A stretch of 59,801 nt of DNA from Thermoplasmata archaeon (GCA_035502055.1 DATJVB010000036.1:1-59801), one strand, 5' to 3'; shown: positions 1-24,130, numbered from the stretch's first letter. Program-made: numbers and translations. Notes: a model not told the origin generated them from the sequence alone.

Positions 1-390
1 GATCAGCGTCGCGACCGTCGTGTAGGACGACGCTTCGCCGATGTCCACCGCGCCGGAGCAAACCGCGAGGCGGCCCGCCCCGCTTCCGCCCTGGTTAACG
101 GAGATCACGATGTTGCTGTTGTTCTGCTGGAACTCCTTCGCGGCCTCCTGGGTGAACGGATAGACCGAGGTGCTGCCCCCGATCGTCACCGTGTACTGCG
201 CCGTCGGCGTGCCGATTCCGCCCGTGACCTGACCCTGCCACGCGACCAGCCAGAGATAGAGGGCCGCGGCCGCGGCGACCGCCACGAGGATCAAGATCAA
301 CGTGGCGACCACCGGCGACACCGCACGACCCTCACGGATCTGCTGGGCGCGTCGGCGCCGAAGCTTCGTTCGCATGTTCGTCGCTCTCAT
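1..390 (-). CDS. pstS: PstS-family phosphate-binding protein with an archaeal class III (type IV pilin-like) signal peptide; the C-terminus runs off the window
   Basis: Not in the ORF track because it is open at the window edge. Hand translation of the minus strand from ATG at 390 (alternative ATG at 375) gives MRATNMRTKLRRRRAQQIREGRAVSPVVATLILILVAVAAAAALYLWLVAWQGQ...TIGGSTSVYPFTQEAAKEF...VNQGGSGAGRLAVCSGAVDIGEASS. RAVSPVVATLILILVAV fits the archaeal pilin N-terminal consensus. GSTSVYP and GGSGAG..G.VDIG.AS are PstS/PBP_like_2 hallmarks. A purine-rich GGAAGGAAG lies just upstream. Confidence 0.7.
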   Translation of the reverse strand, partial: MRATNMRTKLRRRRAQQIREGRAVSPVVATLILILVAVAAAAALYLWLVAWQGQVTGGIGTPTAQYTVTIGGSTSVYPFTQEAAKEFQQNNSNIVISVNQGGSGAGRLAVCSGAVDIGEASSYTTVATLI

Positions 391-526
391 TTCTTCCTTC
401 CCTTCCCAACCGGTGTGGTTGTTTTCCCGCGGGGTTGGGGCCCCTTTGTCGGGCCCCGCGCCGCGGCCGAGCCATCCTGCGGGGGCGGCATATCCGTCGC
501 CGAAATAGAACCCGTAGCGCGCGCGA

Positions 527-2419
527 TTGCCGGGGAGGCGCGGTCCGCCAACGGTTGGGAGACGGGGCCCCCCGAGCCGCACCGAGATTACGAAATCTCC
601 GGGCGCGCCGCTTAACCGGGCCGGCCTTTCTCTCCGCCCGATGAACCAGGCTCCGGGGGCCGCGCCGGCGGTCCCGGGGCTCCGAGATCCCGAGCGACAG
701 CGGGACCTCCCGCGACGGCCCCCACCGGACGCGAAGCCCAAGGACCGCGCGACGCTCCGGCGGGAGTCGTCGGCGCTAGACTCCCGCTTCGTGCACCGGA
801 TGGAGGTCCCGGAGAAGGTCCTCGTCCAGGCCGAGCTCGCGTACATGCGCAACCAGCTCGACCGCGACCGCCGCACCGTCGACGTGACCTACCCGGTGAA
901 CCCCCCGTACGCGTTCGTCCACGTCGCGTTCGACGTGAAGAAGGCCGAATTCTCCTACACGGTGCTCGAGCCGTCGCTCAAGGAGGGAGAGCCGGAGAAG
1001 GTCCGCACCATCCGGGAGAAGATGGAGGCGATGATGTCCCAGGAGGAGATCCCGGTCACCGAGGGACTCAACCTCGACCACTCGCCGGAGCTCCAGGAAT
1101 ACCTCCGGAGCCGGTTCCTCTCGGTCCTGGACCTCTACGACATCGACGTCCCGGCGAAGCGTCGGCCGGTCCTCCTGTACTACCTGCTCCGGGAGTTCAT
1201 CGGCCTCGGGCGGACCGACCCGGTCCTCCGGGACCCGTTCCTCGAGGACGTGAGCTGCCTCGGCCCGGGCGTCCCGCTGTACGTCTTCCACCGGGTGTTC
1301 GGCTCGATGCGGACGAACGTCGAGTATGGCGGCGAGCTGGAGCTCAACAAGTACATCCTGCGCCTCGCCCAGATCTCCGGCAAGCACATCTCCATCTACC
1401 AGCCGATCCTGGACGCGACGCTCCGGGATGGGAGCCGGATCAACCTCACGCTCGGGACCGAGGTCACCCGCAAGGGCTCCACGTTCAGCGTGCGGAAGTT
1501 CTCCCAGGATCCCGTCTCCCCGATCGACCTGCTCCGGTTCGGGTCGGTCTCCTCCGCCCAGATGGCGTACTTTTGGACCCTCGTCGAGGCGCACCGGTCC
1601 ATCCTGATCTCGGGGGGGACGGCGAGCGGGAAGACGACGCTCCTCAACGCCATCTGCATGTTCGTCCGCCCGGAGGACAAGATCGTCTCGATCGAGGACA
1701 CCCCCGAGATCCACATCGACCACCAGAACTGGATCCAGTCGATCGCCCGGTCGGGCTACGGGATGCCCAGCGGGCTGACGGGCGCCTCCGGGATCTCCGG
1801 CATCAGCCACGGGACGATGCGGACCGCGGGGAGCGTCACGCTCTTCGATCTCCTGGTGGCGGCGCTCCGGCAGCGGCCGGAGTACGTCATCGTGGGGGAG
1901 GTGCGCGGCACCGAGGCGTTCACCCTCTTCCAGGCGATCTCCGTGGGCCACGCGTCGATGTCGACGATCCACGCCGGGACGATCGGGGAGCTCCTGCATC
2001 GGGTGGAGAACGAGCCGATGAACATCCCGAGGGTCCTCTTCCAGGCGCTCGACATGGTCGCCTTCCCGGCCCAGGTCGCGGTCCGGGACCAGCGGGTGCG
2101 CCGGGTCATGGGGATGACCGAGATCCTCGAGGTCGACGCCGGGACGAACGAGCTCCTGACGAACGACGTGTTCCGCTGGCAGCCCGGGCCGGACTCCTTC
2201 ACGTACCTGGGCCGCAGCTTCGTCCTGGAGAAGATCTCCACCACCTCGGGCCGGAGCCTGGACGAGCTGACCGAGGAGATGCGGCGCAAGGCCCGCTACC
2301 TCGAGATGATGAGCCACCTCGGGGTCACGTACTACAAGGACGTCGCCCAGACGATCGCCGCCTACTACGTGGACGCGGCCGCGGCGACCCGGCAGCTCGA
2401 GCGGCGGATCGCCCGGTAG
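527..2419 (+). CDS. Type IV filament assembly ATPase (archaeal FlaI/PilB/TadA family)
   Basis: 630-aa ORF with Walker A GGTASGKTTLLNA and the VGEVRGTEA and GHASMSTIHA motifs of secretion ATPases. It has an archaeal-type N-domain (YPVNPPYAFVHV..YTVLEPSL). The real start may be the internal ATG at 638 (MNQAPG). Confidence 0.9.
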   Translation: MPGRRGPPTVGRRGPPSRTEITKSPGAPLNRAGLSLRPMNQAPGAAPAVPGLRDPERQRDLPRRPPPDAKPKDRATLRRESSALDSRFVHRMEVPEKVLVQAELAYMRNQLDRDRRTVDVTYPVNPPYAFVHVAFDVKKAEFSYTVLEPSLKEGEPEKVRTIREKMEAMMSQEEIPVTEGLNLDHSPELQEYLRSRFLSVLDLYDIDVPAKRRPVLLYYLLREFIGLGRTDPVLRDPFLEDVSCLGPGVPLYVFHRVFGSMRTNVEYGGELELNKYILRLAQISGKHISIYQPILDATLRDGSRINLTLGTEVTRKGSTFSVRKFSQDPVSPIDLLRFGSVSSAQMAYFWTLVEAHRSILISGGTASGKTTLLNAICMFVRPEDKIVSIEDTPEIHIDHQNWIQSIARSGYGMPSGLTGASGISGISHGTMRTAGSVTLFDLLVAALRQRPEYVIVGEVRGTEAFTLFQAISVGHASMSTIHAGTIGELLHRVENEPMNIPRVLFQALDMVAFPAQVAVRDQRVRRVMGMTEILEVDAGTNELLTNDVFRWQPGPDSFTYLGRSFVLEKISTTSGRSLDELTEEMRRKARYLEMMSHLGVTYYKDVAQTIAAYYVDAAAATRQLERRIAR

Positions 2420-2420
2420 G

Positions 2421-3386
2421 GTGGGGGCGATGTGGCGAAGGCGTCGCGCCTTGGGCGAGTGGCACCCGACGGCGGAGGCCGGCCGGGAAGTCCCGTCGGC
2501 CCCGCGGCCGACGCTCCTGGTCCGGTACCGGACCTTCTGCTACCGCGTGCTCGGGCGCTACCTCGATGCGTCCGAGGGCCAGGACGTTCTCGCCGAACGG
2601 CTCCGCCAGGCGGGGGTCAACGTCACCCCGGGGATGCACCGGGCGGTCATCACGATCACGACCCTCGTCGGAGTCGCCGCCGCCGCCGTCCTGGGCGTGG
2701 TCCTCTTCGACCTCGCCCTGGGGATCCCGAATTGGTACCTCTACGCGCTCGTCCTGGTCGGGTTGACGGCCGCGTCGACGGTCGCGTCGTTCGCCTTCCT
2801 GATCAGCAGCCGCATCTCGAATCGGCGGGGGCAGCTGGAGCGGGAGCTCCCGTTCACCTTGAGCGAGCTATCGGTGCTGGCGAGCACGGGCACCCCCCCG
2901 ATCCAGCTGGTCCGCCGGATGGCCCATCGAGACCACGACCCGGCGATGACGCAGGAGTTCCAGAAGATCGTCTATAAGGCCGACATCCAAGGGAAGGACC
3001 TCATCACCGCCCTCGCGGAGACCGCGAAGGAGTCCCCCTCGAACTCGCTCCGGGAGTCGCTGTGGGACCTCGCGAACATCATCCACCAGGGCGGAAACCT
3101 CGACGAGTACCTCCGGACGAAGTCCGAGGACGTGCTGAAGCTCAAGCGACTCGGGCAGCGCGAGTTCATCGAGCAGCTGACGACGTACCTCGACATGTAC
3201 GTGAGCCTCGTCCTGATCGGGGTCCTGATGATCGCGGTCGGGGCCTACCTCATCAACGCCTTCGGGAGCACCGCCGCGGGCCTCGACGCGAACGAGCTCC
3301 TCTTGCTGCTCGCGTACGGGATCGTCCCGCTCGCGGTCGTCATGACCACGGTCCTCATCTCTGTCGCGTACGCGCGCGCCGAGTGA
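2421..3386 (+). CDS. Type IV filament platform protein, FlaJ/TadB-like, with a single T2SSF domain
   Basis: 321 aa, starting 1 nt after the ATPase stop. TM helices flank a cytoplasmic T2SSF-type helical domain (ELPFTLSELSVLASTGTPPIQLV...LWDLANIIHQGGNLDEYL). Confidence 0.75.
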   Translation: MGAMWRRRRALGEWHPTAEAGREVPSAPRPTLLVRYRTFCYRVLGRYLDASEGQDVLAERLRQAGVNVTPGMHRAVITITTLVGVAAAAVLGVVLFDLALGIPNWYLYALVLVGLTAASTVASFAFLISSRISNRRGQLERELPFTLSELSVLASTGTPPIQLVRRMAHRDHDPAMTQEFQKIVYKADIQGKDLITALAETAKESPSNSLRESLWDLANIIHQGGNLDEYLRTKSEDVLKLKRLGQREFIEQLTTYLDMYVSLVLIGVLMIAVGAYLINAFGSTAAGLDANELLLLLAYGIVPLAVVMTTVLISVAYARAE

Positions 3387-3388
3387 CC

Positions 3389-4840
3389 ATGCGGGCGGGC
3401 GGGGCGGTCGGACTCGCGCTCGCGCTGCTCCTGCTCGGGGGGGGACTCGCGAGCCCCTTCGTCGTGCCCGCGCGCGCGGTCCACCCGGCCGACGCGGGGA
3501 GCCCGATCACCATCGAGCTCACGAATCCGTCCCCGGGCTCGACCATTCGCACCGCGACGCCCACGATCTCCGCCTCGTTCTCGGACAGCGACGGGACGAT
3601 CGATGTGAACTCGGTCATCATGCTGGTCGACGGGCGGAACGTCACCGGCCTCGAGGAGGTCACGATCACCCCGACCGGGATCACCTACGCCGTGCCGATC
3701 ATCCTCAGCTTCCGGAACGGCGACCACATGGTCAACGTGACGGCCGCCGACGACTCCGGGCACGAAGCGAAGGCGTCGTGGACGTTCACCGTCAACACCG
3801 CCGCCCCGCCCCCGAGCGAGCTCTCCGGCTTCAGCCTCGAGACCCTCGTCCTCGAGATCGCGATCGGGGGAGCGATCGTCGCGGCCGGCGTCGGGGGGTA
3901 CGTCCTCTACCTCCGCCGGACGAGGAATTTCACGTTCCGGAAGTACTTCGCGACCCACCCGGTCAAGAAGGAGTACGTGACGCTCTACGTTCCGGCCGCC
4001 CTCGCCTTCGTCGTCGTCGTGCTCGGCCTCCTCTGGGTGACGACGACGCCGGGCCTTCCGTTGTTCGCGCCCGAGTACGTCGTCATGGCCGGCCTCTTCG
4101 TCGCACTGACCGCGTACGCCATCGACGCGCGGCGCGAAAAGCAGCGGATACGCACCTACGAGCGCGCGTTCGCCCAGTTCCTGTTCGAGATGGCCGACGC
4201 GATGCGGGGCGGGATCGACCCGGCCAAGGCCGTCGTCGAGCTGTCCAAGAGCAGCGCGAACATCCTTCGGAAGCCGCTCCGGATCGCCGCCGACGGGATC
4301 CTCCTGGGGAGGCCGTTCGACGAGGTGCTCCGGGACATGGTCGCTCCGATGAAGAGCCCTCTCGTCTCGCGGTACGCCCAGCTGATCACCGAGGCGTCGT
4401 CGATCGGGGGCGAGACGTCGGCGGTCGTGTACCGGGCCGCGAAGGACCTCGACGATTTCCTCAAGATCGACGTCGAGCGCGTGAAGCAGCTGATGATGCC
4501 CGTCGCGATCCTGTACGTCGCGTTTGGCGTGCTCGCCGCGGTCCTGTTCGCGCTGCTCTACATCGCCCCCACGCTCGGCTCGATCAACGTGTCGTTCTTC
4601 GGCACCAATCCGCTCGCGACGCCGGGGGTGGGGAACTCGGGCGCTTCCGGCGCGACGGTCCCGAAGCTCGACCCCACCATCCTGAAGCAGCGGTTCTTCG
4701 ATCTCCTGCTGATCGTCTCGCTGGGCACCGGGGCGATCATCGGGGCGTTCACGGAGGGGAAGGCCCGCTACGGTCTTCTCCACTCCCTCGCTCTCATGCT
4801 CGGGACCGCCGTTGCGTTCGCCATCATCTTCCCTGGGTAG
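3389..4840 (+). CDS. Second platform protein (FlaJ/TadC-like T2SSF domain) fused to an N-terminal signal peptide and an extracellular Ig-like domain
   Basis: ATG at 3389 lies in frame inside track ORF 3062..4840 and 2 nt after the upstream stop. It has a signal peptide (MRAGGAVGLALALLLLGGGLASPFVVPARA) and a beta-rich module (PITIELTNPSPGSTIRTATPTISASFSDSDG..WTFTVNT). TM helices and a T2SSF domain follow (FAQFLFEMADAMRGGIDPAKAVVELSK..ITEASSIGGETS). Confidence 0.75.
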   Translation: MRAGGAVGLALALLLLGGGLASPFVVPARAVHPADAGSPITIELTNPSPGSTIRTATPTISASFSDSDGTIDVNSVIMLVDGRNVTGLEEVTITPTGITYAVPIILSFRNGDHMVNVTAADDSGHEAKASWTFTVNTAAPPPSELSGFSLETLVLEIAIGGAIVAAGVGGYVLYLRRTRNFTFRKYFATHPVKKEYVTLYVPAALAFVVVVLGLLWVTTTPGLPLFAPEYVVMAGLFVALTAYAIDARREKQRIRTYERAFAQFLFEMADAMRGGIDPAKAVVELSKSSANILRKPLRIAADGILLGRPFDEVLRDMVAPMKSPLVSRYAQLITEASSIGGETSAVVYRAAKDLDDFLKIDVERVKQLMMPVAILYVAFGVLAAVLFALLYIAPTLGSINVSFFGTNPLATPGVGNSGASGATVPKLDPTILKQRFFDLLLIVSLGTGAIIGAFTEGKARYGLLHSLALMLGTAVAFAIIFPG

Positions 4841-4976
4841 ACGCTCGACGGCCGCCCGGAACCCAAACCGGGCCGGGCGCGGAGGCGTCGACCGGCCGGC
4901 TCGAACGACCGACGACTGGGTGCGGCCCGCTCGCCCACTCGGGGTTCGTGCGATCCGCCGTCCGGCGCCGGGGCGG

Positions 4977-5801
4977 CTAAGTGTAGACGAGCGGCGCGCT
5001 CACGCCGAGGAGGCCATCGCTGTTCGTCACGGTGAGAACGATCGAATCCCCGGAGTGGAGGCCCCCAGGGACCTCGGCGAGCTCGCCGGAATACATCGTG
5101 GTGGTTCCGCCGGACGTAACGGCCCAGCTCCACGAGACGATCGTCGCATTGCCCGACTGGAACGAGTGGCTTCCGTCCAGCACGGGGATGATCGTCAGCC
5201 CGCCTCCGGAGGAGCCGGTCTCGAGCTGGGTCACGATCGGTATCGCCGTCGGGGGGATGAACACCTTCGTGAAGTCGTTGTCGTAGTACGTGAAGGCGTC
5301 GAGCTGGACGTAGTCGGAGTCGTGCAGCACGAACCCCGGCGTGTAGGGCGAATAGTCCGCATCCGCGACGTTGAGGTCGACCCCGATGGTGATCTGGTCC
5401 CGGGCCCCGATATCGAGCTGCTCCCCGGATCCCACGACCCAGCTCTGGACCAGCCCGGTCGTGAGGTTGAGCCCGGTCGCGTTGTACCGCTCGAGCTCCT
5501 GGTGGTTGACGCTGATCGACGTGACATAGGAGGTGTCCAGCGATAGGCTCGCGAGGGTGAAGTCGAACTCGACGTAGTGGGACCCGTCCAACGACAGGGT
5601 CGGTTGCGCGTGGAGGACCACGAGCGACTCGAGGCTCCGCTCCTGGGTGACCTGCTGCTCCGCCTGCAGCTGCTTCTGGTACGACGCCGCGAACGCGGCG
5701 AACGCCGTCGCCGCCGAGACCACGATGAGCACCAGCATCAGGGCCCCGACGATCTCGGAGAGCCCCCACCGGTTGGGCCGGACGGCTCGCACCCGGCGCA
5801 T
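4977..5801 (-). CDS. Pilin-like protein with a class III signal peptide
   Basis: 274 aa. The N-terminus MRRVRAVRPNRWGLSEIVGALMLVLIVVSAATAFAAF has a basic stretch, then G, then LSEIVG and a hydrophobic helix, which is the archaeal prepilin pattern. The rest is beta-rich with NxT/S sequons and a PKD-like C-terminal module. Confidence 0.65.
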   Translation of the reverse strand: MRRVRAVRPNRWGLSEIVGALMLVLIVVSAATAFAAFAASYQKQLQAEQQVTQERSLESLVVLHAQPTLSLDGSHYVEFDFTLASLSLDTSYVTSISVNHQELERYNATGLNLTTGLVQSWVVGSGEQLDIGARDQITIGVDLNVADADYSPYTPGFVLHDSDYVQLDAFTYYDNDFTKVFIPPTAIPIVTQLETGSSGGGLTIIPVLDGSHSFQSGNATIVSWSWAVTSGGTTTMYSGELAEVPGGLHSGDSIVLTVTNSDGLLGVSAPLVYT

Positions 5802-5881
5802 CGCGCGCCGACGGGGCCGCGCACGGTTAGCCTAACCCCACGGAATCTCGGTAGCGGTACGATGTCCCCCGGACTCACCCC

Positions 5882-6547
5882 GTGGCACCATTAAACCGAA
5901 CTCTCTTCTGCCATGCCGTGGGACTTCCTGTCGAGGTGCCGGGTCTAGACACCATCATTCCCGAATTCGAGGAGGGTCGGCTCATTGTCGTGGAGAGCGG
6001 GGCCGACCCGGCCAAGAGCTATTTCGTGCGGCGCATCGCGCTCACGGCGCACCGGGAAGGGTGGCCCGTCACGTTCGTCACGAGCCGCGACCGGCGCGAG
6101 CTCGAGATGCAGCTCGCCGCCGAGGCCGGGGAGCATCCGTGGAACGAGGCGGAGATGACGATCGTGGAGCAGGACTCCGTCCGGGAGCTCGAGGGGCTCG
6201 GCGGCCTCGGGGGGCTCCTCGCGGTCGACTCGTTCTCCTTCCTCACCCTCGACACCGGGGGGCCCGCGGTCGCCCACCTGCTCCGCAACCTCCGCTCGGT
6301 GGGCCGGGACCAGCGGACGACGATCGTCCTCGCCACCGACCGGGGCATGTTCGATCCCCGGACGGCGGCGATCGTCTCCCATCTCGCCGACGGCGTGCTC
6401 GAATTCCACGCGAAGGAGGGGCCCGAGGGGCTTCTTAGGTTCATGCGCGTCCCCAAGTGGTTCGACGGGCGCATCATGGACCGCAACATCCACTACGAGT
6501 TCGACGGGAAGCGGATCGCCGTCGACCTGCGCCGTCGGGTGCTGTAG
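5882..6547 (+). CDS. RecA/KaiC-fold protein, FlaH-like, with a degenerate Walker A
   Basis: 221 aa, GTG start (alternative in-frame GTGs downstream). GLDTIIPEFEEGRLIVVESGADPAKSYFVRRIAL is the KaiC/FlaH P-loop region but reads GADPAKS. LLAVDSFSFL is Walker B-like. Confidence 0.6.
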   Translation: MAPLNRTLFCHAVGLPVEVPGLDTIIPEFEEGRLIVVESGADPAKSYFVRRIALTAHREGWPVTFVTSRDRRELEMQLAAEAGEHPWNEAEMTIVEQDSVRELEGLGGLGGLLAVDSFSFLTLDTGGPAVAHLLRNLRSVGRDQRTTIVLATDRGMFDPRTAAIVSHLADGVLEFHAKEGPEGLLRFMRVPKWFDGRIMDRNIHYEFDGKRIAVDLRRRVL

Positions 6548-6556
6548 GGAGCGGCG

Positions 6557-7600
6557 ATGGCGAAGGTCTCGTACGACCGGTACGGTCTCACCGCGAATCC
6601 GTTCCGGGACCTCGCGAGCGAGAGCCTCGAGGACGTGGAGATCTTCCACGTGCGTCTCCAGGTCGATGACGTGCTCCGGGGGGTCAAGGAGGAGGTCCTC
6701 GAGAAGGAGAACCGCGCCGTCATCGCGATCACGGGACCGTTGGGATCCGGGAAGACGCAGCGGCTCCGTCTCGCCGAGGCGGAGGGGAAGGAACGGGGCG
6801 CGTTCACGGCCCTCGTCGACGTGCCCGCTCGGTCGAAGCTCGCGGTGAAGGCGATCGCCGACGCCCTCTCCAAGGCGTCGAACGTCGGGGGATTCTCCGC
6901 CGCGCTCGGGGGACCGGCGTGGCTCCGGGAGCTCCACGGCGTCGCCGCGGGGAAGTCCGCGGAATGGGACGCCGGGCGGGCCGGGAAGGCGATCGCCCAG
7001 GCGCTCAACGAGCACGCTCCGGCGTTCCTCCTGCTCAACGACCTCCACAACCTCTCTCCCGCGGCCGAGGTCCAGCCGATCGCCCGGGTCCTCCAGGCCG
7101 TCGCCGACGCGATCCGACCGGGCGTCCTCGTGATGTTCGCCTGCTATCCGTCGTTCTTCGCCGCCCTCACGCAGGCGTACCCGGCCCTCGGCTCCCGGAT
7201 CAACCGGACCCTCGAGCTGCCGGTGATCTCCGACGACGAGGCCGGCCTCCTGCTCGCGAAGAAGCTCCTCGCGAAGCGGCTCGTCGAGGAGATGGACCCA
7301 CTCTATCCGTTCGACCGGGAGGCGGTCGAGGCGATGAACCAGGCCGCCGGCGGGAATCCCCGCCGGCTCCTCGAGACGGCCGACCGGGTCATGGAGGCCG
7401 CGGTCGCCCAGCGGGTGTACCGGATCGACGGGCCGTTCGCCCGCGCGACGCTCGAGAGCCTCGCTCCGCCGGCCCCGGCGGTCCGGCCGGTCGTTCCGAC
7501 GGCCCCCGGGAGCGGGGGGCCGGGGGCCGCCCGGGCGCCCCCGCCCGTCGCCGTCGTGGCGGCGGCCCCGCTCCGACCGGTGGTGCCGAAGGACCCGTAG
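6557..7600 (+). CDS. AAA+ ATPase, ExeA/GspA-like (ORC/Cdc6-related P-loop NTPase)
   Basis: 347 aa. The N-terminal YGLTANPF matches the ExeA-type FGL..PF motif. Walker A is GPLGSGKT, Walker B is FLLLNDLH, and GGNPRRLL is the sensor region. The C-terminal tail is Pro/Ala-rich. Confidence 0.65.
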   Translation: MAKVSYDRYGLTANPFRDLASESLEDVEIFHVRLQVDDVLRGVKEEVLEKENRAVIAITGPLGSGKTQRLRLAEAEGKERGAFTALVDVPARSKLAVKAIADALSKASNVGGFSAALGGPAWLRELHGVAAGKSAEWDAGRAGKAIAQALNEHAPAFLLLNDLHNLSPAAEVQPIARVLQAVADAIRPGVLVMFACYPSFFAALTQAYPALGSRINRTLELPVISDDEAGLLLAKKLLAKRLVEEMDPLYPFDREAVEAMNQAAGGNPRRLLETADRVMEAAVAQRVYRIDGPFARATLESLAPPAPAVRPVVPTAPGSGGPGAARAPPPVAVVAAAPLRPVVPKDP

Positions 7601-7619: not shown

Positions 7620-8648
7620 CTACGACGCCTTCCCGGCCGCCGGCTCCTCTTGGACCGCCACGTCGATCGCCTGCTCGGCGATGTCGGAGGCGTACCCGGC
7701 CGTCCGGGCGAGGCTGTCGACCACCGTCCCGAGGGCGAGGAGCTCCTCGCCTTTCTTCGTGGCGACCCGGTGCGAGAGCTGGTCGATGAGGCGCTGGTGG
7801 ACGACGCGGGCGTCGATCGACTCGTTCGCCGAGTCGATGTCCCGCGTGATGAAGGCGAGGAACGCCTTGTCGAGGATCGCCACGGCCGAGGCGTTCGCCT
7901 CGGCGAGATCCTTCGCGAGCTTCGGATCGAGGGTCGACTTGCCGCCCACGACCGTGGGGTAGGTCCGGGCGATGCGCTCGGCGTGGTCGCCGATCCGCTC
8001 GAGGAGCTTCGCGACCAGCCGGTGGTGGTCGATGCCGTTCGCGAGCGCCCGGCTCGCCCCGTCGGAGGGGCGCGTGTGGGCCGCGTGGAACTGCTTCGCG
8101 ACCATCCAGTAGAGGCGATCGACGTCCTGGTCGCGCTGGGAGACGTCCTGGGCGAGCGAGGCGACCCCCGTGGTCAGCGCCCCGATGGAGTCGTCGAGCA
8201 TCGCGTGGACGATGAGGTGCATCCTCCGGAGGCACTTCTCGGAGCTCAGGTCGGAGGCGTCCGACAGGTCCTGGATGAGGATCCCGTGCCGGCTCTCCTC
8301 GATCACCTCGGGGCCGATGACGAGACGGCAGAACTCCCGGGCCACCCGGCGGACGAACGGCCCCCGATCGGGCGGGAACCGGATCTCGATGAGGCCGTAT
8401 CCCGAGATGTACGCCCCGATCAGCTTCCGGAGCAGGTGGTCGCGGGCCTCCTCGCCCTTCTCCTCGAAGACCTTCCGACGAACGGACGGCTTCGCCTCCA
8501 TCCGGTGGCGCACCGACACCGATCCGTCGCTCTCGGTCTCGAGGAACAGCGTGTCCCCCGGCTTGAGACCCGCTGCCTGGACCCACCGCTTCGGCAGCGA
8601 GACGACGTAGGTCGATCCCCCGGCAAGTTGCAGTTTGCGGCCCTCCAT
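7620..8648 (-). CDS. phoU: Phosphate uptake regulator, PhoU family, with an N-terminal AbrB/SpoVT DNA-binding domain
   Basis: 342 aa. LAGGSTYVVSLPKRWVQAAGLKPGDTLFLE is an AbrB swapped hairpin. It is followed by PhoU-type helical repeats (DVDRLYWMVAKQF, ERIGDHAERIAR, ARTAGYASDIAEQA). Confidence 0.85.
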   Translation of the reverse strand: MEGRKLQLAGGSTYVVSLPKRWVQAAGLKPGDTLFLETESDGSVSVRHRMEAKPSVRRKVFEEKGEEARDHLLRKLIGAYISGYGLIEIRFPPDRGPFVRRVAREFCRLVIGPEVIEESRHGILIQDLSDASDLSSEKCLRRMHLIVHAMLDDSIGALTTGVASLAQDVSQRDQDVDRLYWMVAKQFHAAHTRPSDGASRALANGIDHHRLVAKLLERIGDHAERIARTYPTVVGGKSTLDPKLAKDLAEANASAVAILDKAFLAFITRDIDSANESIDARVVHQRLIDQLSHRVATKKGEELLALGTVVDSLARTAGYASDIAEQAIDVAVQEEPAAGKAS

Positions 8649-8697: not shown

Positions 8698-9693
8698 CTA
8701 TTGAGATTCCGTAGGTGCGTGGGCAGGGCGGGAGACGTCCTCGGAGGTGGTGGCCGCCGTCCCCCCCGGGGGTCGGCGGCGACCCGCGCGCCGGTAGGCC
8801 GCCACGGCCCCGAGGGCCGCGAGCGAGGCGACCGCGATCAGCGAGAGATACAGCACCGGTCCCTGGAACCAGGATCCGCCGGACGACGATGCGGCCGGAC
8901 TCCCGGTGACCGTGAGGTTCGTCGAGGCGTACGTGAAGGAACCGAACCCGTCGGTAACCTGCACGCGGACGATGAACGCGCCGGGCGCCTGAGGGACGCA
9001 GGTGAGGTCGGTCTGGTTGAAGCCCGCGCAGCCCGGCGGGAGGTCGAAGAAGAAGTACGAGAGCGAGAACGTCGGTGTCGAGCTCTGGGATTCGGCGACG
9101 ACGTGGAGGACCGTCGGGTGGTCCTCGGCGACGGTGGCCGGCTCGGCGACGAACTCCGTGATGAGGGGGGGCGAGCCCCGGCCGGTCGTCACGGTGAGGT
9201 TCGCCGAGGCGGTGGCGACCTCCCCGACCGCGTCCGTCACCTGGACGTCGACGACGTAGGTGCCGGTGGACGACGGGCTGCAGGGAAACGCGGACTTGTT
9301 CTCGCTGGAGCATCCGAACGGGAGGTTCCGGTAGGCGAACGTGATCGGAGGGGTCCCGCCGGTGATGTTCACCGTGACGTTCGTCGCGGAGGCGACCACG
9401 ACGGTCGCCGGCGAGATCGTGAACGAGCGGATCGCGAGCGCCGAGGAGTCGGCCGGGCGCAGGTTCATCCGCGAGTCCGCCGCGGGGGACCTTCCGAGCG
9501 CCGTTCCGTCGGGACTCGCGGCCGGCGACTTCCCCGCGCCATGAAGCGGGCCGGCCGGCGCCGGCCGGGCGGCGGTCGCCGCGAGGGACGAGGCGACGAG
9601 GAGGATCACGAGGAGGAATGCCGTGGGGGGAAGCAGCCGCTCGGGAAGCGAACGGTGCTCGCGCCCACGCGTCCTTCCCCGACCCTGCGGCAT
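8698..9693 (-). CDS. Surface protein with two Ig-like repeats and a C-terminal TM anchor
   Basis: This is track ORF 8698..9813. The likely start is ATG at 9693 (MPQGRG..), ahead of the signal/TM segment LLPPTAFLLVILLVASSLAATA. Two repeats have the form GG.PP..F.Y..LP.GC....C.P...G.Y.V.VQVTD..G....A.NLTV. There are many NxT/S sequons. The C-terminal TM is followed by an Arg-rich tail. Confidence 0.7.
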   Translation of the reverse strand: MPQGRGRTRGREHRSLPERLLPPTAFLLVILLVASSLAATAARPAPAGPLHGAGKSPAASPDGTALGRSPAADSRMNLRPADSSALAIRSFTISPATVVVASATNVTVNITGGTPPITFAYRNLPFGCSSENKSAFPCSPSSTGTYVVDVQVTDAVGEVATASANLTVTTGRGSPPLITEFVAEPATVAEDHPTVLHVVAESQSSTPTFSLSYFFFDLPPGCAGFNQTDLTCVPQAPGAFIVRVQVTDGFGSFTYASTNLTVTGSPAASSSGGSWFQGPVLYLSLIAVASLAALGAVAAYRRAGRRRPPGGTAATTSEDVSRPAHAPTESQ

Positions 9694-10097
9694 TCGCGGA
9701 GCGGGTGCCCTTCCCCGGATCGGGTCGCGGGTCCGGGTGTCGGGCCCCGGCCGGGCGAACGCCGTCCACGTCCTTGCGAACGGTGCGACCTTTCCCGCCG
9801 CTCTCGGGGACATCCGGGGGTTGGTGAGCCTCCCGGCGTGCGCAGACGGTCGCCTCGGCTTCTAGACGCGCCCCATATTCTCCGTAGCCGTCCGGGGCGG
9901 ACCGGACCCCGGGAGGGGCCTTCGGCGGGCGGAGGTCGGGGAGGACTGCGGTCGGATCGCGCCGGCCCACCCCGCACCCCCCGCCGGATGCTCCGGTCCT
10001 CCGATGCGGGCGATGCCCTCGTAGTTCCCCATAGACTCCGGGCCGAAGCTACATGCCGCTCCCGACGGGTGGCCCGGGGTCGGCGGTGCCCTAGGCG

Positions 10098-10970
10098 GTG
10101 GTTCGCGTGGGTTCTCTCCCCCTGGCGGTCCGTTTCGTGCTCGTCGGGGCGGCGGTGGTGGCGGTCGCGTTGGGGCTCGCGGGACTCGCCCCGCTGCCCG
10201 TCTCCGCGCCGTCGCCTTCCGTGTCCGCTCCGTCGACGTGGGAGAGCCCGAGCGCGGCTCCGCCCCGGGCGGGTCCCCCTCTCGATCCCCCGCCAGCGGC
10301 CGCCGCCGGTGACGGTCCCCGCGGAGTGACGAGCGACGTCGCGTCCCCCGTCTCGGTCTCGGCCACGCCGTCGAGCACCGAGCAGCTGCTCCCGGTGGCG
10401 TTCGCCGCGCACATCTCCGCCTCCGGTCCGTTCGTCTACGTCTGGGACTTCGGCGATGGGACGACGAGCGCCGACGCCGCTCCGGCGCACTCGTACATCG
10501 CGCCGGGGACGTTCACCACCGTCCTCCACGTGATCGGACCGAACGACACGATCGTCGGAAACGCCACGGTCTCGGTGGTCGTCGCGCCCATCCTGATCGC
10601 CGTGGGGCCCAACCTGCCGCTGGAAGGCAGCGTGGGCCAGACGTTCCACTTCTCGATCGACGTGTACCAAGGGGTGCCTCCGTACACCTTCTTCTGGGAG
10701 TTCGGGGACCTCAACACGAGCCACGTGCAGAACGCCACCCATGCCTACCGGCTACCGGGCTCGTACACGGCGACCGTGTGGGTCAACGATAGCGTGGGCG
10801 GCCAGAACATCCAGACCGTCTCCGTCGTCATTCCTCGGTCCACGCCTTCGGGATCGGGAGGCAGCCCGAGCGGAGGCTCGATCCCGTACGCGTGGATCGG
10901 CGCCGGGGTCGCCATCGTGGCGTTGGTCACCGGGGCCGGCCTGTGGCTCACCCGAGAACCCAAGCCCTAG
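10098..10970 (+). CDS. PKD-domain surface protein with a C-terminal TM anchor
   Basis: 290 aa with a signal peptide. Two PKD signatures are present (YVWDFGDGTTSADAAPAHSYIAPGTFTTVLHV and FFWEFGDLNTSHVQNATHAYRLPGSYTATVWVND). The C-terminal TM is WIGAGVAIVALVTGAGLWL. Confidence 0.8.
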   Translation: MVRVGSLPLAVRFVLVGAAVVAVALGLAGLAPLPVSAPSPSVSAPSTWESPSAAPPRAGPPLDPPPAAAAGDGPRGVTSDVASPVSVSATPSSTEQLLPVAFAAHISASGPFVYVWDFGDGTTSADAAPAHSYIAPGTFTTVLHVIGPNDTIVGNATVSVVVAPILIAVGPNLPLEGSVGQTFHFSIDVYQGVPPYTFFWEFGDLNTSHVQNATHAYRLPGSYTATVWVNDSVGGQNIQTVSVVIPRSTPSGSGGSPSGGSIPYAWIGAGVAIVALVTGAGLWLTREPKP

Positions 10971-11418
10971 CGACGGACCTTTCCGGTCGATCCGCCGGCA
11001 CCCCCGCTCCCCGCCGGCAGGGCCCCCCCGCGCCCCGGGGCGCCTCGGAGCTACTTCCGAGGTCCCGAGTCGGACTCCCGGGACCCCGGGTAAGCGAGAT
11101 AGAGGCGGGGGTGGGAGAAGGCGCGGTTGGCCCCACCCGGAGGGGTCGCCCGGTCGTTGGGTCTATCTCCCCCCGAAGCGTCGACCCAACGTTCCTGCCC
11201 GATATCGCGCAGGTCCGAGCGTGATCCTCTGGTTCTCCGCGCCCCCGAACGGTCGATGCCGGGCGACAGTATCTAGGTCGCCCTCGTACTCTCTGGTGAC
11301 CTATGGACGACTCCGCACTATCGGATGGGGACCGGGCGTCCCGCCCGCCCGAGGGTCCATCCTCCTCGGGAGCGGTCCCGTTCCTTCGATCGACGACCGC
11401 GGGTAGGCCGGCGGGTCC

Positions 11419-12087
11419 ATGACCACCGTCCGGACCGTGGCCGCCCACGAGGTCGTCCGGGCGACGTACCCCCGGCCCGAGGTGACGGAGCGGGACGAGC
11501 TGGGCATGGCCGTCGGGAAGGCGATCGACCACGCGCTCTCCCGCTACGCGAACGATGCCTCGCGCGGCCTGCGCCCGACGGCGGCGTCGACGCGGAGGAT
11601 CGCGGCCGAGGCGCTCGACGAGGAGCTGCGCGATATCGACCTCCGCCCGCCCGCCGCGGAACTCGACCGGATCCAGGCCCAGATCGGAGCCGTGATCGCC
11701 GCGTTCCGGAAGAGCCCCCTCTACGGGCTGCGGCGCCCCCAGAGCCGGCTCGTCCTGATCGGCGCCGAGGCGGGCGTGTACGCCCAGCCCGACTACTGGG
11801 ACGGCCGCTCGCGCTTCTTCGAGATGAAGAGCTACCGGGCGGTTCCCGCGCCGCCGGACGTCCGGCTGCAGCTGAGCCTGTTCCAACTCGCGTTCCCCGG
11901 CTTCGAGGCGCACCTCGTCTGCCTCAACCGGCACGCCGTCCCGGTAGAGGTGCTCGACGAGCGGATACCGCCGTTGTCGGAGGAGGAGGGCCGCGCCGTG
12001 TTGGACCGGGCCCGCGCGGTCGCGCTCGACGCGGGGGTCGAGAAGGTCCTCGAGTACGTCTCCAACCCGATCGTGCGGTACGCCTGA
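11419..12087 (+). CDS. Hypothetical protein, possible PD-(D/E)xK nuclease fold
   Basis: 222 aa with good GC3 coding signal. QPDYWDGRSRFFEMKSY fits PD..(D/E)xK. I recognise no other domain. Confidence 0.45.
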   Translation: MTTVRTVAAHEVVRATYPRPEVTERDELGMAVGKAIDHALSRYANDASRGLRPTAASTRRIAAEALDEELRDIDLRPPAAELDRIQAQIGAVIAAFRKSPLYGLRRPQSRLVLIGAEAGVYAQPDYWDGRSRFFEMKSYRAVPAPPDVRLQLSLFQLAFPGFEAHLVCLNRHAVPVEVLDERIPPLSEEEGRAVLDRARAVALDAGVEKVLEYVSNPIVRYA

Positions 12088-12108
12088 GCCGGGGGGCCCT
12101 CCCGGGGG

Positions 12109-13293
12109 TCAGTAGGCGAGGTGTGGCGCGGCGCTGATCGTGGCGAACGGGAACCCGCCGGTAAAGTACCCTCCCGGGACCGCGTTCTGCCAGTATCCGA
12201 TCATGTCCGCCGGATCGAGCTGGGAGAACACGTGGGAGGCGTGCGGCTCGAACACGAACCGGAACCGGAAGTCGTTGGGCGCCTGCTGGTGGAGGGTCTC
12301 CATCGTCGACGAGCACGTCGGCGGCTCGCCGAGCGACAGCGCCACGTTGCACGTCGCGTTCACGAACGTGTTGTTGATGTTGAGCCAGAACGGCCAGATC
12401 GAGACGTTGTCCGGCGCCCGGAAGTCGATCCCGCCCGCGGTCACGTAGATCGGCACGTGCCGGAACACCGTCGGGTCGAAGCGGAGGGGGCTCATCGCCT
12501 CGTAGACCGGCACGAGGGCGAGGGAGCTCGCGTTGCCGGTCCCCGGAAGGACGCCGCAGAACAGCTGCGCCTTCGCCGAGAGCGACGTCGCCGCCCACGA
12601 GACGTTCGGTCCCAGCGCGAGCCGGTACGCGACGTCCTCGAACAGGTCCGTGACGGGCGCGATGATCCCGATTCCGCTGAAGATCGGGTGCGCGGCGGCG
12701 AACGAGAGCGTCCCCTCGGTCCCCATGCTCATCCCGAAGAGATAGAGCCGCGAGATGTGGCGGAGCGACCGCTCGTGCTGGATCGCATCGAGCACGTCCT
12801 GCTGCTGCGGACCGCCGCACGGGCTGTTGATGTACCACCCGGAGCCCGACCGGCTGTTGAGCGCGATGAGGATGAACCCCTGGGCGGAGGCGGTGTTGAC
12901 GAGTCCCCGTACGGTGGTCCCGACCGGACTGGTCGCGTTGAGGTAGGACACGATGTCCGTGTCGAGCCCGCCCGGGATCCACGTCCCGTTCGTGTTCTCC
13001 TGGCCGTGAAGGTAGATGATCAGCGGGTACGTCCGGGACGCGTTGTACCCCGCCGGGAGCCACTCGTAGTAGGAGAGGTTCCAGCCGTCGACGCTGCTCG
13101 CGTAGGCGATCTTCGGCGGAAGCGCCGAGGCGCCGGGGGCCGGGGTCCCCCGCGCGGACGGAGGGCCCGACGGGAGGGCGCCGACGGCGGGAAGGACGAG
13201 GAGGAGAAGGATCGGCCCGAGGGCGTACAGGCCGTGCCGGGCGCGGGGACCGACGCGGGGGCCGGCGCGACGAGGGCGGTCCATGGAGCGCAT
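12109..13293 (-). CDS. Secreted alpha/beta hydrolase (esterase/depolymerase-like)
   Basis: 394 aa with a signal peptide (LGPILLLLVLPAVGALP). It has IIYLHGQ, a GMSMGT nucleophile elbow (GxSxG), and NxT/S sequons. Confidence 0.7.
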   Translation of the reverse strand: MRSMDRPRRAGPRVGPRARHGLYALGPILLLLVLPAVGALPSGPPSARGTPAPGASALPPKIAYASSVDGWNLSYYEWLPAGYNASRTYPLIIYLHGQENTNGTWIPGGLDTDIVSYLNATSPVGTTVRGLVNTASAQGFILIALNSRSGSGWYINSPCGGPQQQDVLDAIQHERSLRHISRLYLFGMSMGTEGTLSFAAAHPIFSGIGIIAPVTDLFEDVAYRLALGPNVSWAATSLSAKAQLFCGVLPGTGNASSLALVPVYEAMSPLRFDPTVFRHVPIYVTAGGIDFRAPDNVSIWPFWLNINNTFVNATCNVALSLGEPPTCSSTMETLHQQAPNDFRFRFVFEPHASHVFSQLDPADMIGYWQNAVPGGYFTGGFPFATISAAPHLAY

Positions 13294-13498
13294 GCGTCCT
13301 CCCCGGAAGGACGAACGGCCGGAGCCGTCGGACGGTTAACCTCTCCCTCCCCGGCTCGCGGTTCGGCTCATCGGCGCGGCTCCGCGGAGATGTCTCGGCC
13401 GGCCGGGGACGCCTCCGGACGGTTGGGGCGGGACTGGGGTGGGGCAGGGGCGACGTTCGGGCCCGGCTTGGCCCCGACTCGGGTCGGCCGCTGACGTA

Positions 13499-13509
13499 GC
13501 GATATACCC
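13499..13509 (+). promoter_or_regulatory. TATA-like box (GCGATATACCC) about 30 nt upstream of the ATG at 13534
   Basis: An isolated A/T box in a GC-rich divergent intergenic region. The spacing fits a leaderless archaeal transcript. Confidence 0.4.
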
Positions 13510-13533
13510 CGACCGGCGGGTCGGCGGACCGCC

Positions 13534-14694
13534 ATGAAGGCACCACGAGGCATCTGGCTCTTGACGACCGGCCTATTGATCGGACTGATGGTCCCGGCCC
13601 TCGCGCAGGGCGCGTCGGTCGCGCCGACCGCGACCACGACCCTCGCCGGAACCGGGACGACCCCGGCCGCGAGCGCGGTGTTCACGATGACGAACAACGC
13701 GAGCGGCAACTCGGTGATCGCCTACACCGTCGGGAGCACCGGGGCGCTCTCGGCCGCCGGCACGTTCCGGACGCACGGGCTCGGCACGGGCGCGAGCCTC
13801 GCCGATCAGGGCGCGCTCGCGCTCACCGCGGATTACCGGTGGCTCCTCGTCGTCGACGGCGGCAGCAACCAGATCTCCGTCTTCCACGTGAACCCGGCGA
13901 GCCGCTACGCGCCTATCCTCTCGTTCTCGGGCCGCGTTTCGTCCGGCGGCGTGATGCCGGTCAGCCTCGCGGTCCACGGCGCCTGGGTGTACGTCCTCAA
14001 CGCGGGCAACGCGACGGTCGCCGGGAACATCGCGGGATTCCGCCTCACGGCCGCGGGTCTCGTGACGCTCCCCGGGTCCCACGAGCCGCTCAGCTCGAGC
14101 GCGCCGACGGGTCCGGCCCAGGTGTCGTTCAATCCGGCCGGCACCGTCCTCGTCGTGGCCGAGAAGGCGACGAGCCTCCTCGACAGCTACACGGTCGACT
14201 CGCACGGCATCGCGTCGGCGCCCTGGACGACGAACTCGAGCGGCAGCACCCCGTACGGGTTCGCCTTCGCCCCGTCCGGTACCCTCGTCGTGAGCGAGGC
14301 GGGCCCGGGCGCCCTCTCCTCCTACTCGGTGAGCGGGACCGGCACCATCTCGGTGATCTCCCCGACGGTCCTCGACAACCAGTCGGCCCCGTGCTGGGTC
14401 GTCCTCGCGGGCGGCGGCCGGTGGGCGTACACCACCAACGCGCACAGCGATTCGATCTCGACCTACACCCTCGCCCGGAACGGCACCCTCGTCCTCCAGG
14501 CGTCGGTGGGGGCGACGACCGGCAGCGCCCCGACGGACATGGCCGTCACGACCTCGACCGGTCGGTACGTCCTCGTCTACGACGCGGGCGCGGGACAGAT
14601 CGACGAGTTCGCCGTCGGCGCCGGTGGCACGCTCACCGCCACCACGAGCGTCTACGGCCTCCCGCTCACCTCGGAGGGCCTCGTCGCGTTCTGA
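13534..14694 (+). CDS. Secreted beta-propeller protein, lactonase (7-bladed) family-like
   Basis: 386 aa with a signal peptide (MKAPRGIWLLTTGLLIGLMVPALAQG). Blade endings recur (NQISVFHV, LLDSYTV, ALSSYSV, DSISTYTL, GQIDEFAV), which is typical of the lactonase-type propeller family. Confidence 0.65.
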   Translation: MKAPRGIWLLTTGLLIGLMVPALAQGASVAPTATTTLAGTGTTPAASAVFTMTNNASGNSVIAYTVGSTGALSAAGTFRTHGLGTGASLADQGALALTADYRWLLVVDGGSNQISVFHVNPASRYAPILSFSGRVSSGGVMPVSLAVHGAWVYVLNAGNATVAGNIAGFRLTAAGLVTLPGSHEPLSSSAPTGPAQVSFNPAGTVLVVAEKATSLLDSYTVDSHGIASAPWTTNSSGSTPYGFAFAPSGTLVVSEAGPGALSSYSVSGTGTISVISPTVLDNQSAPCWVVLAGGGRWAYTTNAHSDSISTYTLARNGTLVLQASVGATTGSAPTDMAVTTSTGRYVLVYDAGAGQIDEFAVGAGGTLTATTSVYGLPLTSEGLVAF

Positions 14695-14754
14695 GGGAGC
14701 CCAACCCAACTCCGGGGGGCGACCCTCATTAGGGCCGTCCCCCTCGCCCAACTG

Positions 14755-15126
14755 GTGCCGATGAACCCCGCGTTCCGGTCCCTCCTGTGGTACCTCCTCG
14801 TCGGTACCCGCGGCGGGCCGAACCGGTGCCGCATCGTCGAACTCCTTCACCGGTCTCCCGCGAACGCGCACCAGGTCGCGAGCGCCCTCGAGCTCGACTA
14901 CCGAACGGTGCGCCACCACCTCCGGCTCCTGGAGCAGAACCAGGTCGTCACGCGGTCGGTCCCGGGCGCGTACGCCCCCCCGTACGAGCTCTCCCCGTAT
15001 CTCGCGGAGCAGTTCGAGGCGGTGGCCGAACTGATCCACCCCCCCGCGCCGGCGCCGGAGCGGCGCCGGCGGAGCCCCGCTCCGGCGCCTGGATGGGGGA
15101 CCCGGTCCGCCATCGGGGGTCCGTGA
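14755..15126 (+). CDS. ArsR-family winged-helix transcriptional regulator
   Basis: 123 aa. GGPNRCRIVELLHRSPANAHQVASALELDYRTVRHHLRLLEQNQVV is a classic ArsR/SmtB wHTH. An alternative ATG lies at 14761. Confidence 0.8.
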   Translation: MPMNPAFRSLLWYLLVGTRGGPNRCRIVELLHRSPANAHQVASALELDYRTVRHHLRLLEQNQVVTRSVPGAYAPPYELSPYLAEQFEAVAELIHPPAPAPERRRRSPAPAPGWGTRSAIGGP

Positions 15127-15410
15127 CCAGCCTCCTCATGGAGGCGAGCATCGTCGTCGGCGTGGCGAGCATCCTGCTCGCCGGCGGCCTGTTCGTCCTC
15201 TACCGGCGCCTCTACGCGGAGAACCGGAGCCGGTTCGGCCTCGCCCTGCTCGTCTTCGCGGGGGCGTTCGTCGCCCAGAGCGCCCTCACCGTCTATTCGT
15301 TCCTCTCCGCGATGCCGATCATCCCGGAGGCGTTCGTGCCGTTCCTGTTCGGCATCGGGCTGTGCGAGGCGACGGGCCTCGCCGCGATGGTCTGGACCGC
15401 CTCGCGGTGA
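15123..15410 (+). CDS. Small membrane protein coupled to the ArsR regulator
   Basis: It lies in frame within track ORF 14787..15410. GTG at 15123 overlaps the ArsR stop (GTGA); an alternative ATG lies at 15138. Three hydrophobic helices are present (IVVGVASILLAGGLFVL, LALLVFAGAFVAQSALTV, FLFGIGLCEATGLAAMVW). Confidence 0.55.
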   Translation: MTSLLMEASIVVGVASILLAGGLFVLYRRLYAENRSRFGLALLVFAGAFVAQSALTVYSFLSAMPIIPEAFVPFLFGIGLCEATGLAAMVWTASR

Positions 15411-15503
15411 TCCTCTCCCTCTGCGGACGTCCGATTTCGTCCCCCCCGATCCCCGTCCGGGACACTCGGACAGGGGGCGCTCTGTCAGCGTAGGCGGGCG
15501 TCC

Positions 15504-18566: not shown

Positions 18567-18596
18567 CGACGCCGGCCCCCCCGGGCCGCGGCCGTC

Positions 18597-19088: not shown

Positions 19089-19272
19089 CGGCGGACCGAC
19101 CCGAAGGAAGGCTAAATCAGTTCGCATCCCGGAGCCCGGTGGAAAGTGTAACTGTTCGCACCGACCGTTATAGGTCCGGAGCGGGAATTCTCCCTATTCC
19201 ATGACGCCGGGCCCGCGGGACCGGGGGGTCCGGACCCCCGGCGGGGCCCCGCCTCCGGCCCGGACCGGCCGG

Positions 19273-24108: not shown

Positions 24109-24130
24109 GGCCGCGTACGCCCGATCGGGG

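Follow-up and report, generated by a model that had tools for sequence, protein, structure and literature searches.

Can a phosphate-binding protein be displayed at the archaeal cell surface by a type IV filament system of its own? The question is raised by the gene cluster at the left end of a 59,801-bp stretch of DNA, hereafter the window, which is an entire contig of a Thermoplasmata metagenome-assembled genome (MAG; GCA_035502055.1, DATJVB010000036.1:1-59801) with a GC content of 68-78%. The cluster opens with a gene for a PstS-like phosphate-binding protein. An earlier reading made from the DNA alone, here called the sequence-only reading, had listed beside this gene a FlaI/PilB-type ATPase, two platform proteins, a pilin-like protein, a FlaH-like protein, an AAA+ protein and a PhoU/AbrB regulator, and every gene of that list was found in the window (Table 1). 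It had further suggested a phosphate-specific, bindosome-like or pilus-tethered binding protein. Comparative genomics supports this idea, through conserved synteny, a class III N-terminus and a PstS-like domain, and we consider it probable that a bindosome-like type IV filament system for scavenging phosphate is encoded here. The PstS gene and one particular assembly module show conserved divergent synteny, and in several lineages the gene is also tied to pstCA and pstB.

The PstS-like protein begins with a predicted pilin-type signal

Translation of the window from position 390 to position 1 yields 130 residues, MRATNMRTKLRRRRAQQIREGRA/VSPVVATLILILVAVAAAAALYLWLVAWQGQVTGGIGTPTAQYTVTIGGSTSVYPF...NQGGSGAG...VDIGEASS, in which the slash marks the predicted cleavage site. 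A basic class III signal peptide occupies residues 1-23, with cleavage predicted between A23 and V24 (DNA ~319-324), and residues 24-53 (DNA 232-321) form the invariant hydrophobic helix VSPVVATLILILVAVAAAAALYLWLVAWQG. Residues 22-49 passed the NCBIfam model TIGR02537 (arch_flag_Nterm, archaellin/type IV pilin N-terminal domain) with 29.9 bits against a cutoff of 20, and P0062, the closest full-length relative, scored 26.5 bits with the same model. The family profile and the window sequence alone each matched Iho670 of Ignicoccus hospitalis (PDB 3j1r, 5kyh): residues 24-57 of PstS align with residues 1-34 of mature Iho670, and 20 of the first 25 positions are identical. Since this alignment begins at residue 1 of the mature protein, cleavage was placed between A23 and V24. 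The surroundings of the site, ...IREG-R(-2)-A(-1)/V(+1)SPVVATLILILVAVAAAAALYLWL, conform to the rule for such signals, with a short basic leader, a positive residue at -2, a small residue at -1 and an uninterrupted hydrophobic helix; a positive charge at -2 is a hallmark of archaeal signal peptidase III sites (PMC3387779). The archaeal class III signal peptide proposed by the sequence-only reading is thus borne out by the TIGR02537 match, the Iho670 alignment and R22 at -2, and judged from sequence the N-terminus is a class III (prepilin-type) signal and not a plain anchor.

Among 26 diverse members of the family, mean pairwise identity was 0.97 over the 30 columns of the helix vs 0.55 in the remaining protein. 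As a control, the conventional PstS whose gene is the neighbour in some of these genomes was examined in the same way, and its N-terminal anchor region was conserved less than its globular domain. The helix of the pilin-type PstS appears to be constrained far more tightly than an anchor role would need. The specificity of the N-terminus was examined by an exhaustive search of its 50 residues against 1.84 billion representative proteins, which returned 68 matches only; PBP_like_2 was present in 49 of the 55 that were scanned, and therefore the N-terminus is not likely to be a general export tag of the lineage. The idea of a lineage-wide pilin leader carried by many exported proteins was rejected, the sequence being nearly confined to PBP_like_2 proteins in this search. 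It occurs once in the window, and in 0.84 Mb of flanking DNA from relatives it is essentially confined to PstS genes.

The globular part resembles phosphate-binding proteins in profile and predicted fold

The N-lobe of the binding domain begins near residue 61 and holds the motifs GGSTSVYPF, QGGSGAG and VDIG. The window fragment passed the Pfam model PBP_like_2 with 35.2 bits against a cutoff of 27, and 61.6 bits were reached elsewhere in the family. Structural work used P0062, a protein that shares 82% identity with the window fragment. Its AlphaFold model (predicted local distance difference test, pLDDT, 91.8; predicted template-modelling score 0.83) shows one continuous 34-residue helix at residues 26-59 followed by a globular binding-protein fold. 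When this model was compared with the PDB by Foldseek, the top 47 matches were all phosphate-binding proteins (PstS, PBP, DING), with target-normalised template-modelling scores of up to 0.83.

Across 113 family members, GGSTS, GG[ST]GAG, VD[IV]G and RSDASGT show little or no variation. Equivalents of the phosphate-ligand residues T10, S38, D56, R135, D137, S139, G140 and T141 of E. coli PstS are present in the family; the pairing of RSDASGT with R135, D137, S139, G140 and T141 comes from a weak profile match (E 0.055) that covers the C-lobe motif only. The window fragment itself holds the three N-lobe motifs only. High-GC members carry in addition a poorly conserved, cysteine-rich insertion of ~100 residues and several invariant cysteines. 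By the Pfam hidden Markov model (HMM) and by modelled fold the globular part is PstS-like, in agreement with the sequence-only reading: PBP_like_2 lies above its cutoff and the P0062 model matches phosphate-binding folds.

The PstS gene and the filament module recur together across lineages

A first search for relatives, with the 130-residue fragment, gave 13 matches, all of them truncated, and suggested a rare or always broken gene. This picture, which arose from the word-index limit of the search, was overturned by a frameshift-corrected full-length query that returned at least 304 clusters at 90% identity, with proteins of 450-520 residues. The few family matches that bear an organism name are Thermoplasmata MAGs, and their source annotations read "flagellin-like protein" or "phosphate transport substrate-binding protein".

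For the neighbourhood survey, one genome was taken per GTDB species, which gave 54 loci, and the window proteins were run against them by tblastn. The layout count for Thermoplasmata was restricted to loci with at least 2.5 kb upstream (n=38, one contig being counted twice). The divergent ATPase and the remaining module were found in 35 of these 38 loci. The shared layout comprises the ATPase ~0.35 kb away on the opposite strand, platform 1, platform 2, a second class III-signal protein on the opposite strand (the LSEIVG protein), a KaiC-like protein, a P-loop ATPase and the AbrB-PhoU protein. Short low-GC relatives of 330-370 residues, found through the N-terminal search, had the same module in all five loci examined, with identities to the window proteins of ~60% for the ATPase, 37-51% for the platforms, 31-36% for the KaiC-like protein and 30-45% for the P-loop ATPase; the LSEIVG protein was matched at 28-36% in four of the five and undetected in locus L059. 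Because the gene order recurs in 35 of 38 loci and in five distant lineages, the adjacency is not due to chance, and the co-occurrence survey that the sequence-only reading had called for came out in its favour.

Two Nitrososphaerales loci, L051 and L054, each have the pilin-type PstS gene preceding the ATPase gene. At L051 there are also the platform genes, a gene for a conventional PstS and one for a Pilin_N protein whose N-terminus is the same, GVSEVIG. Between its platform genes and the pilin-like gene lies a gene for a CdvA-like coiled-coil domain protein (PF18822, E 9e-14; L051 8006-8755, minus strand).

We also noticed that an unusual number of MAG contigs break inside the pilin-type PstS gene: position 1 of the window, the ends of L002/L050, L033, L042, L043, L047, L055 and L056, and the starts of L010 and L020. 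One MAG contains both L056 and L010, which look like the halves of a single locus split within the invariant helix. Such breaks could possibly come from near-identical coding stretches among co-occurring populations or from micro-diversity in the variable insert. Two short contigs with an archaeal pilin-type PstS gene, L022 (2.7 kb) and L044 (3.0 kb), are binned as Acidimicrobiales and Acidobacteriaceae MAGs, respectively; these labels most likely reflect mis-binning and not an occurrence in bacteria.

Several lineages link the pilin-type PstS to Pst transporter genes

In four low-GC Thermoplasmata loci (L057, L059, L060 and L061) the pilin-type PstS gene is immediately followed by one that encodes a PstC-PstA fusion, 1065-1223 residues long (Table 1), and in L057, L059 and L061 it is the sole PstS gene of the operon. 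PstB and AbrB-PhoU are encoded close by in L057, L060 and L061; in L059 AbrB-PhoU was found at the far side of the module and no PstB in the 21 kb fetched. The last gene of L062 is truncated and shows weak similarity to PstCA. In L054, pstCA and pstB lie upstream. The high-GC loci L020, L016, L024 and L026 show the order pilin-type PstS, conventional anchor-bearing PstS, PstC and PstA, with PstB too in L020 only, and in L003, L004 and L048 the conventional PstS alone comes after the pilin-type one. PstB-PhoU is found on the far side of the filament module in L009, L014, L015, L018 and L023. From this genomic context, a functional tie to Pst seems clear for the family overall. The window and its closest relative, L063, belong to a subgroup without pstCAB nearby, and PKD and PQQ surface proteins flank both.

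The module encodes an ATPase, a split platform and a second pilin-like protein

The secretion ATPase belongs to the type IV filament superfamily, and its top NCBIfam match was FlaI, with 391 bits against a cutoff of 550. The platform proteins matched ArlJ with 56.6 bits, also against a cutoff of 550, each corresponding to one half of it. Platform protein 2 is composed of a Sec-type signal, an extracellular immunoglobulin-like (Big_7/CopC-like) domain and a single T2SSF domain.

The LSEIVG protein has the N-terminus RWG/LSEIVGALMLVLIVV, of which R-x-G/LSEIVGALMLVLIVV is conserved in orthologues, followed by a variable, beta-rich C-terminal part. A single-sequence AlphaFold run gave a pLDDT of 40 and was confident at the helix of residues 14-54 only. 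We regard this protein as a candidate minor or priming pilin.

The protein called FlaH-like by the sequence-only reading is present; its similarity to KaiC and to ArlH (18.8 bits vs 215) is weak and under the cutoff for each, and it carries the degenerate P-loop VESGADxAKS[FY]F. The neighbouring P-loop ATPase has the conserved N-terminus SY[DE]RYGLTGNPFRDLASE, a weak AAA_22 match and a conserved Walker A motif, GSGKT (GxGKT in orthologues), followed by LLLNDLHNL. It presumably resembles the secretion-associated ATPases ExeA, GspA and MshM, a resemblance that appeared as a weak TIGR03015 match only. The regulator that had been read as AbrB/PhoU was recovered with both of its domains, and AbrB-PhoU fusions are the type of regulator seen in the archaeal pst loci sampled.

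A conserved divergent promoter region joins the two transcription units

The intergenic DNA between the PstS and ATPase genes is conserved over ~35 species whose proteins share only 50-60% identity. It contains a TATA-like element for the PstS gene, two motifs, A and B, and a TTAAG element ahead of the ATPase gene (Table 1). Nearly all matches to motifs A and B lie in PstS-ATPase intergenic regions, with four strays elsewhere in the 0.84 Mb of flanks, and none was found at pst or phoU promoters in these flanks. Because the matches concentrate in the shared intergenic region, the two divergent units are likely to be co-regulated. The CCGTA repeats are a candidate operator; the sites may be bound by the AbrB-PhoU protein, in a still hypothetical tie to the Pho regulon.

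The locus is related to known systems and distinct from each of them

The functional precedent is the bindosome of Sulfolobus/Saccharolobus, with the ATPase and membrane protein BasEF, the pilin-like proteins BasABC and the substrates GlcS, AraS and TreS. Sulfolobus sugar-binding proteins need pilus-assembly genes to work, and their genes are scattered. To our knowledge the structure formed by the bindosome has never been resolved, an open problem since 2007. Both systems combine ATP-binding cassette (ABC) transporter binding proteins bearing class III signal peptides with a dedicated type IV filament ATPase, platform and small pilin-like proteins that are needed for or linked to them. They differ in that the substrate here would be phosphate and not sugars, and in that the PstS gene adjoins the machinery, whereas the Sulfolobus binding-protein genes lie elsewhere with their transporter. 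In addition, the platform here is split over two genes; the module has the KaiC/ArlH-like protein, the P-loop ATPase and AbrB-PhoU as constant components; and the hosts are Thermoplasmata and Nitrososphaerales, not Sulfolobales. BasE scored 182 bits against a cutoff of 1000 and BasF 26.8 against 1300, and since these scores are far under the cutoffs the locus is not orthologous to Bas.

The best family matches of the KaiC-like protein, the ATPase and the two platform halves are the components of the archaellum motor core, ArlH, ArlI and ArlJ. An archaellum was nevertheless rejected as a reading: neither archaellins nor ArlF/G, ArlC/D/E or ArlX were found at the locus, and the ArlI, ArlJ and ArlH scores are all under the curated cutoffs. 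Lutacidiplasmatales were reported to be without archaellum genes in the description of that order. The adhesion filament protein Iho670 has nearly the same mature N-terminal helix, VSPVIATLLLILIAVAAAVLLYTW vs VSPVVATLILILVAVAAAAALYLW here, and this segment forms the core of its solved archaeal type IV-like filament; unlike PstS here, its globular part is not a binding-protein fold, and the protein has no transporter link. The locus shares with canonical PstSCAB-PhoU systems the binding-protein fold, the ligand motifs and, in relatives, linkage to pstC, pstA, pstB and phoU. It departs from them in its pilin-type N-terminus, which replaces a Sec or lipoprotein signal, in the seven-gene filament module in or beside the operon, and in the ~100-residue insertion and conserved cysteines of the high-GC form.

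An in silico prediction of class III binding proteins across archaea dates from 2007 (Szabo et al. 2007, cited in PMC3387779). According to the text of a recent preprint (Sivabalasarma and Albers, bioRxiv 2026), such proteins are widespread and functionalise type IV filaments, which is proposed there as a general principle, and they usually sit with ABC transporters and not in filament loci; neither "phosphate" nor "PstS" occurs in that text. In contrast to the binding proteins of these two proposals, the one described here shares a single conserved locus with its specific machinery, transporter and regulator. Phosphate, PhoU and a locus of this kind are absent from Makarova et al. 2016, and pili and Pst from the Lutacidiplasmatales description. 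In the full-text literature searched, which lay outside subscription journals, nothing relevant was found on PstS carrying a signal peptide of class III or on an archaeal phosphate-binding protein with a pilin. The sequence-only reading had known of no description of such a system. That statement holds for the phosphate form in the literature searched, and not for the general idea, which was published in 2007 and 2026; what is new here is a phosphate version with dedicated, linked machinery, and the general bindosome concept was already known.

A model for phosphate capture and the alternatives to it

We propose the following model. A PibD/FlaK-type prepilin peptidase encoded elsewhere is assumed to cleave PstS between A23 and V24. 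The PstS helix, which belongs to the type found in the core of archaeal type IV filaments, would then be pulled out of the membrane by the neighbouring ATPase and platform, and PstS subunits would be assembled into a short pilus or a bindosome-like array on the cell surface, with the LSEIVG protein as a possible primer. The displayed PstS would catch phosphate beyond the membrane, and the phosphate would be handed to the Pst permease directly, or via the conventional membrane-anchored PstS that is encoded next door in some genomes. The divergent promoters with their shared CCGTA/TACGG repeats would probably be co-regulated by phosphate supply, plausibly through AbrB-PhoU. What points to a dependence of PstS on this machinery is the conserved synteny. 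A bolder version of the model makes PstS itself the major subunit of the filament and not its passenger, so that the pilus surface would be a lattice of phosphate-binding domains. It is suggested by an N-terminus of the PilA/Iho670 major-pilin type, by the fact that no other gene in the locus has one, and by the near-invariant helix, and we hold it to be a doubtful possibility.

Several observations count against the proposed system. The weakest part of the model is the hand-over: docking on the permease is not possible for a subunit that is held in a filament, and this step is therefore unexplained. No pstCAB genes were found in the window or within 10 kb on either side in L063, so that pstCAB, for which the sequence-only reading had suggested a look upstream of position 1, probably does not lie there in this genome. 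The HMM comparison that this reading had suggested for the N-terminus and the binding domain gave a divided outcome, since TIGR02537 and PBP_like_2 were passed and Pfam Pilin_N (PF07790) was missed, at 13.4 bits against a cutoff of 25.2; the match to this 78-position model is confined to its first 23 positions. The NCBIfam PstS equivalog models scored far under their cutoffs as well (TIGR02136, 88.8 vs 206.6; TIGR00975, 44 vs 205), and the PstS here is thus divergent; with Pilin_N and the equivalog models under cutoff, both halves of the protein are. Scans for the GxGD motif of a prepilin peptidase gave nothing credible in the window and the flanks fetched. Three loci, L012, L029 and L045, are without adjacent machinery, and all carriers of the family are uncultured MAGs.

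The class III signal and the helix might just tether PstS, as lipid anchors do in Gram-positive bacteria, with the machinery making an ordinary adhesion pilus out of the LSEIVG protein or of pilins encoded elsewhere. Such a pilus, induced together with Pst on phosphate starvation and without PstS incorporated, could attach to mineral or organic phosphorus sources. The separate pilin-like gene of the locus fits this explanation, the shared promoter region and the PhoU linkage are also compatible with simple co-regulation, and a tethered PstS could dock directly on PstCA, as would suit the loci in which it is the only PstS of the operon. However, a mere anchor is not expected to be 97% identical over 30 residues when the rest of the protein is 55% identical, and conservation is poor in the true anchor of the PstS paralogue. 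The helix is moreover of the PilA/Iho670 filament-core type and nearly confined to PstS-like domains, which suggests co-evolution with one partner machinery. We therefore judge tethering alone to be improbable. A different function was considered for a filament that does contain PstS: its domain might bind phosphate-bearing surfaces such as minerals, teichoic-acid-like polymers or nucleic acids, or report external phosphate to the PhoU regulator, and feed no transporter. Bacterial modular pilins carry grafted binding domains, the high-GC family has its variable cysteine-rich insertion, the conventional PstS that is often next door could do the transport, and the window copy is not adjacent to pstCAB. 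Against such an adhesin or sensor role, the complete set of phosphate-ligand residues is conserved, and the short, probably ancestral forms hold the pstS position directly upstream of pstCA; we consider this role decidedly improbable. That the arrangement is an accident or an artefact, through chance adjacency, a mis-called start or a generic hydrophobic segment, was suggested by the truncation of the gene in the window and by the fragments returned in the first search. It is scarcely credible and already refuted by the comparative data, given abundant full-length members, synteny in more than 40 independent assemblies from two phyla and an N-terminus that passes a curated model.

The phosphate-scavenging filament system would represent a previously unrecognised route of phosphate acquisition. 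If PstS is in fact the major subunit, the product would be a nutrient-harvesting filament, which is undescribed for any organism in the literature searched. The module unites binding protein, assembly machine, transporter and regulator, and so offers a compact genetic unit for testing binding proteins in type IV filaments. It is found in many soil and sediment archaea. Among its hosts are Lutacidiplasmatales and Nitrososphaerales MAGs with names that point to studies of soil and acid soil. Phosphate is commonly scarce in such soils, and the system may matter in the competition for phosphorus among these abundant uncultured archaea.

Features of the locus and of the remaining window

Table 1. 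Locations of features in the window (positions from its first nucleotide) and, where a locus number is given, in related loci.
Feature	Location	Strand	Remarks
Pilin-type PstS gene, 5' part (residues 1-130)	1-390	-	PBP_like_2 and TIGR02537; gene interrupted by contig end
Divergent promoter region, PstS gene / ATPase gene	391-640	.	conserved elements
TATA-like element for PstS gene	487-495		ATATCC, given also as ATATCAA/ATATGAA
Motif B	497-516	-	TACGGGTTCTATTTCG, written also TACGGCTTCTCNTTCGG
Motif A	578-603		CGCACGGA-N4-CCGTA-N5-CCGTAG type repeats at intervals of about one helical turn
TTAAG element	608-617		~28 bp ahead of ATPase ATG
ArlI/FlaI-like secretion ATPase, 592 aa	641-2419	+	T2SSE E 4e-33
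Platform protein 1	2421-3386	+	one T2SSF domain; corresponds to ArlJ N-terminal half
Platform protein 2	3389-4840	+	one T2SSF domain; corresponds to ArlJ C-terminal half
LSEIVG protein (second class III-signal protein), 274 aa	4977-5801	-	Pilin_N weak, E 7e-4
KaiC/ArlH-like (DUF7125-like) protein	5882-6547	+	KaiC E 1.3e-5; ArlH E 1e-3
P-loop ATPase	6557-7600	+	weak AAA_22; conserved Walker A
AbrB/SpoVT-PhoU fusion protein	7620-8648	-	PhoU E 7e-21; MazE/AbrB E 1e-9
PIN-domain gene	36312-36779
ParE toxin gene	37133-37420
tRNA-Glu(ttc)	37806-37880
DNA methylase	39666-40679
HerA/DUF87-like ATPase	41202-43493
Fused PstC-PstA, L057	11260-14469		low-GC Thermoplasmata
Fused PstC-PstA, L059	11115-14786		low-GC Thermoplasmata
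Fused PstC-PstA, L060	11174-14383		low-GC Thermoplasmata
Fused PstC-PstA, L061	11205-14402		low-GC Thermoplasmata

Beside the locus, a run of predicted surface proteins occupies positions 8698-22850 of the window and comprises PKD-domain proteins, a PQQ/PKD protein of 1051 residues, one protein with a lactonase-like beta-propeller and another with Kelch repeats. The minus strand at 22729-24276, ~14 kb from the PhoU gene, encodes a Phosphoesterase-family protein (PF04185, E 1.6e-71). We take this family to hold phospholipase C and acid phosphatase enzymes, and the gene is likely a further phosphorus-acquisition gene.

Farther along the window, GC falls to ~0.68 around 34-38 kb, and few open reading frames are predicted across 34.4-35.8 kb. 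With the PIN-domain, ParE, DNA methylase and HerA/DUF87-like genes that follow (Table 1), positions 34400-43500 may be a small integrated or defence islet beside the tRNA gene.

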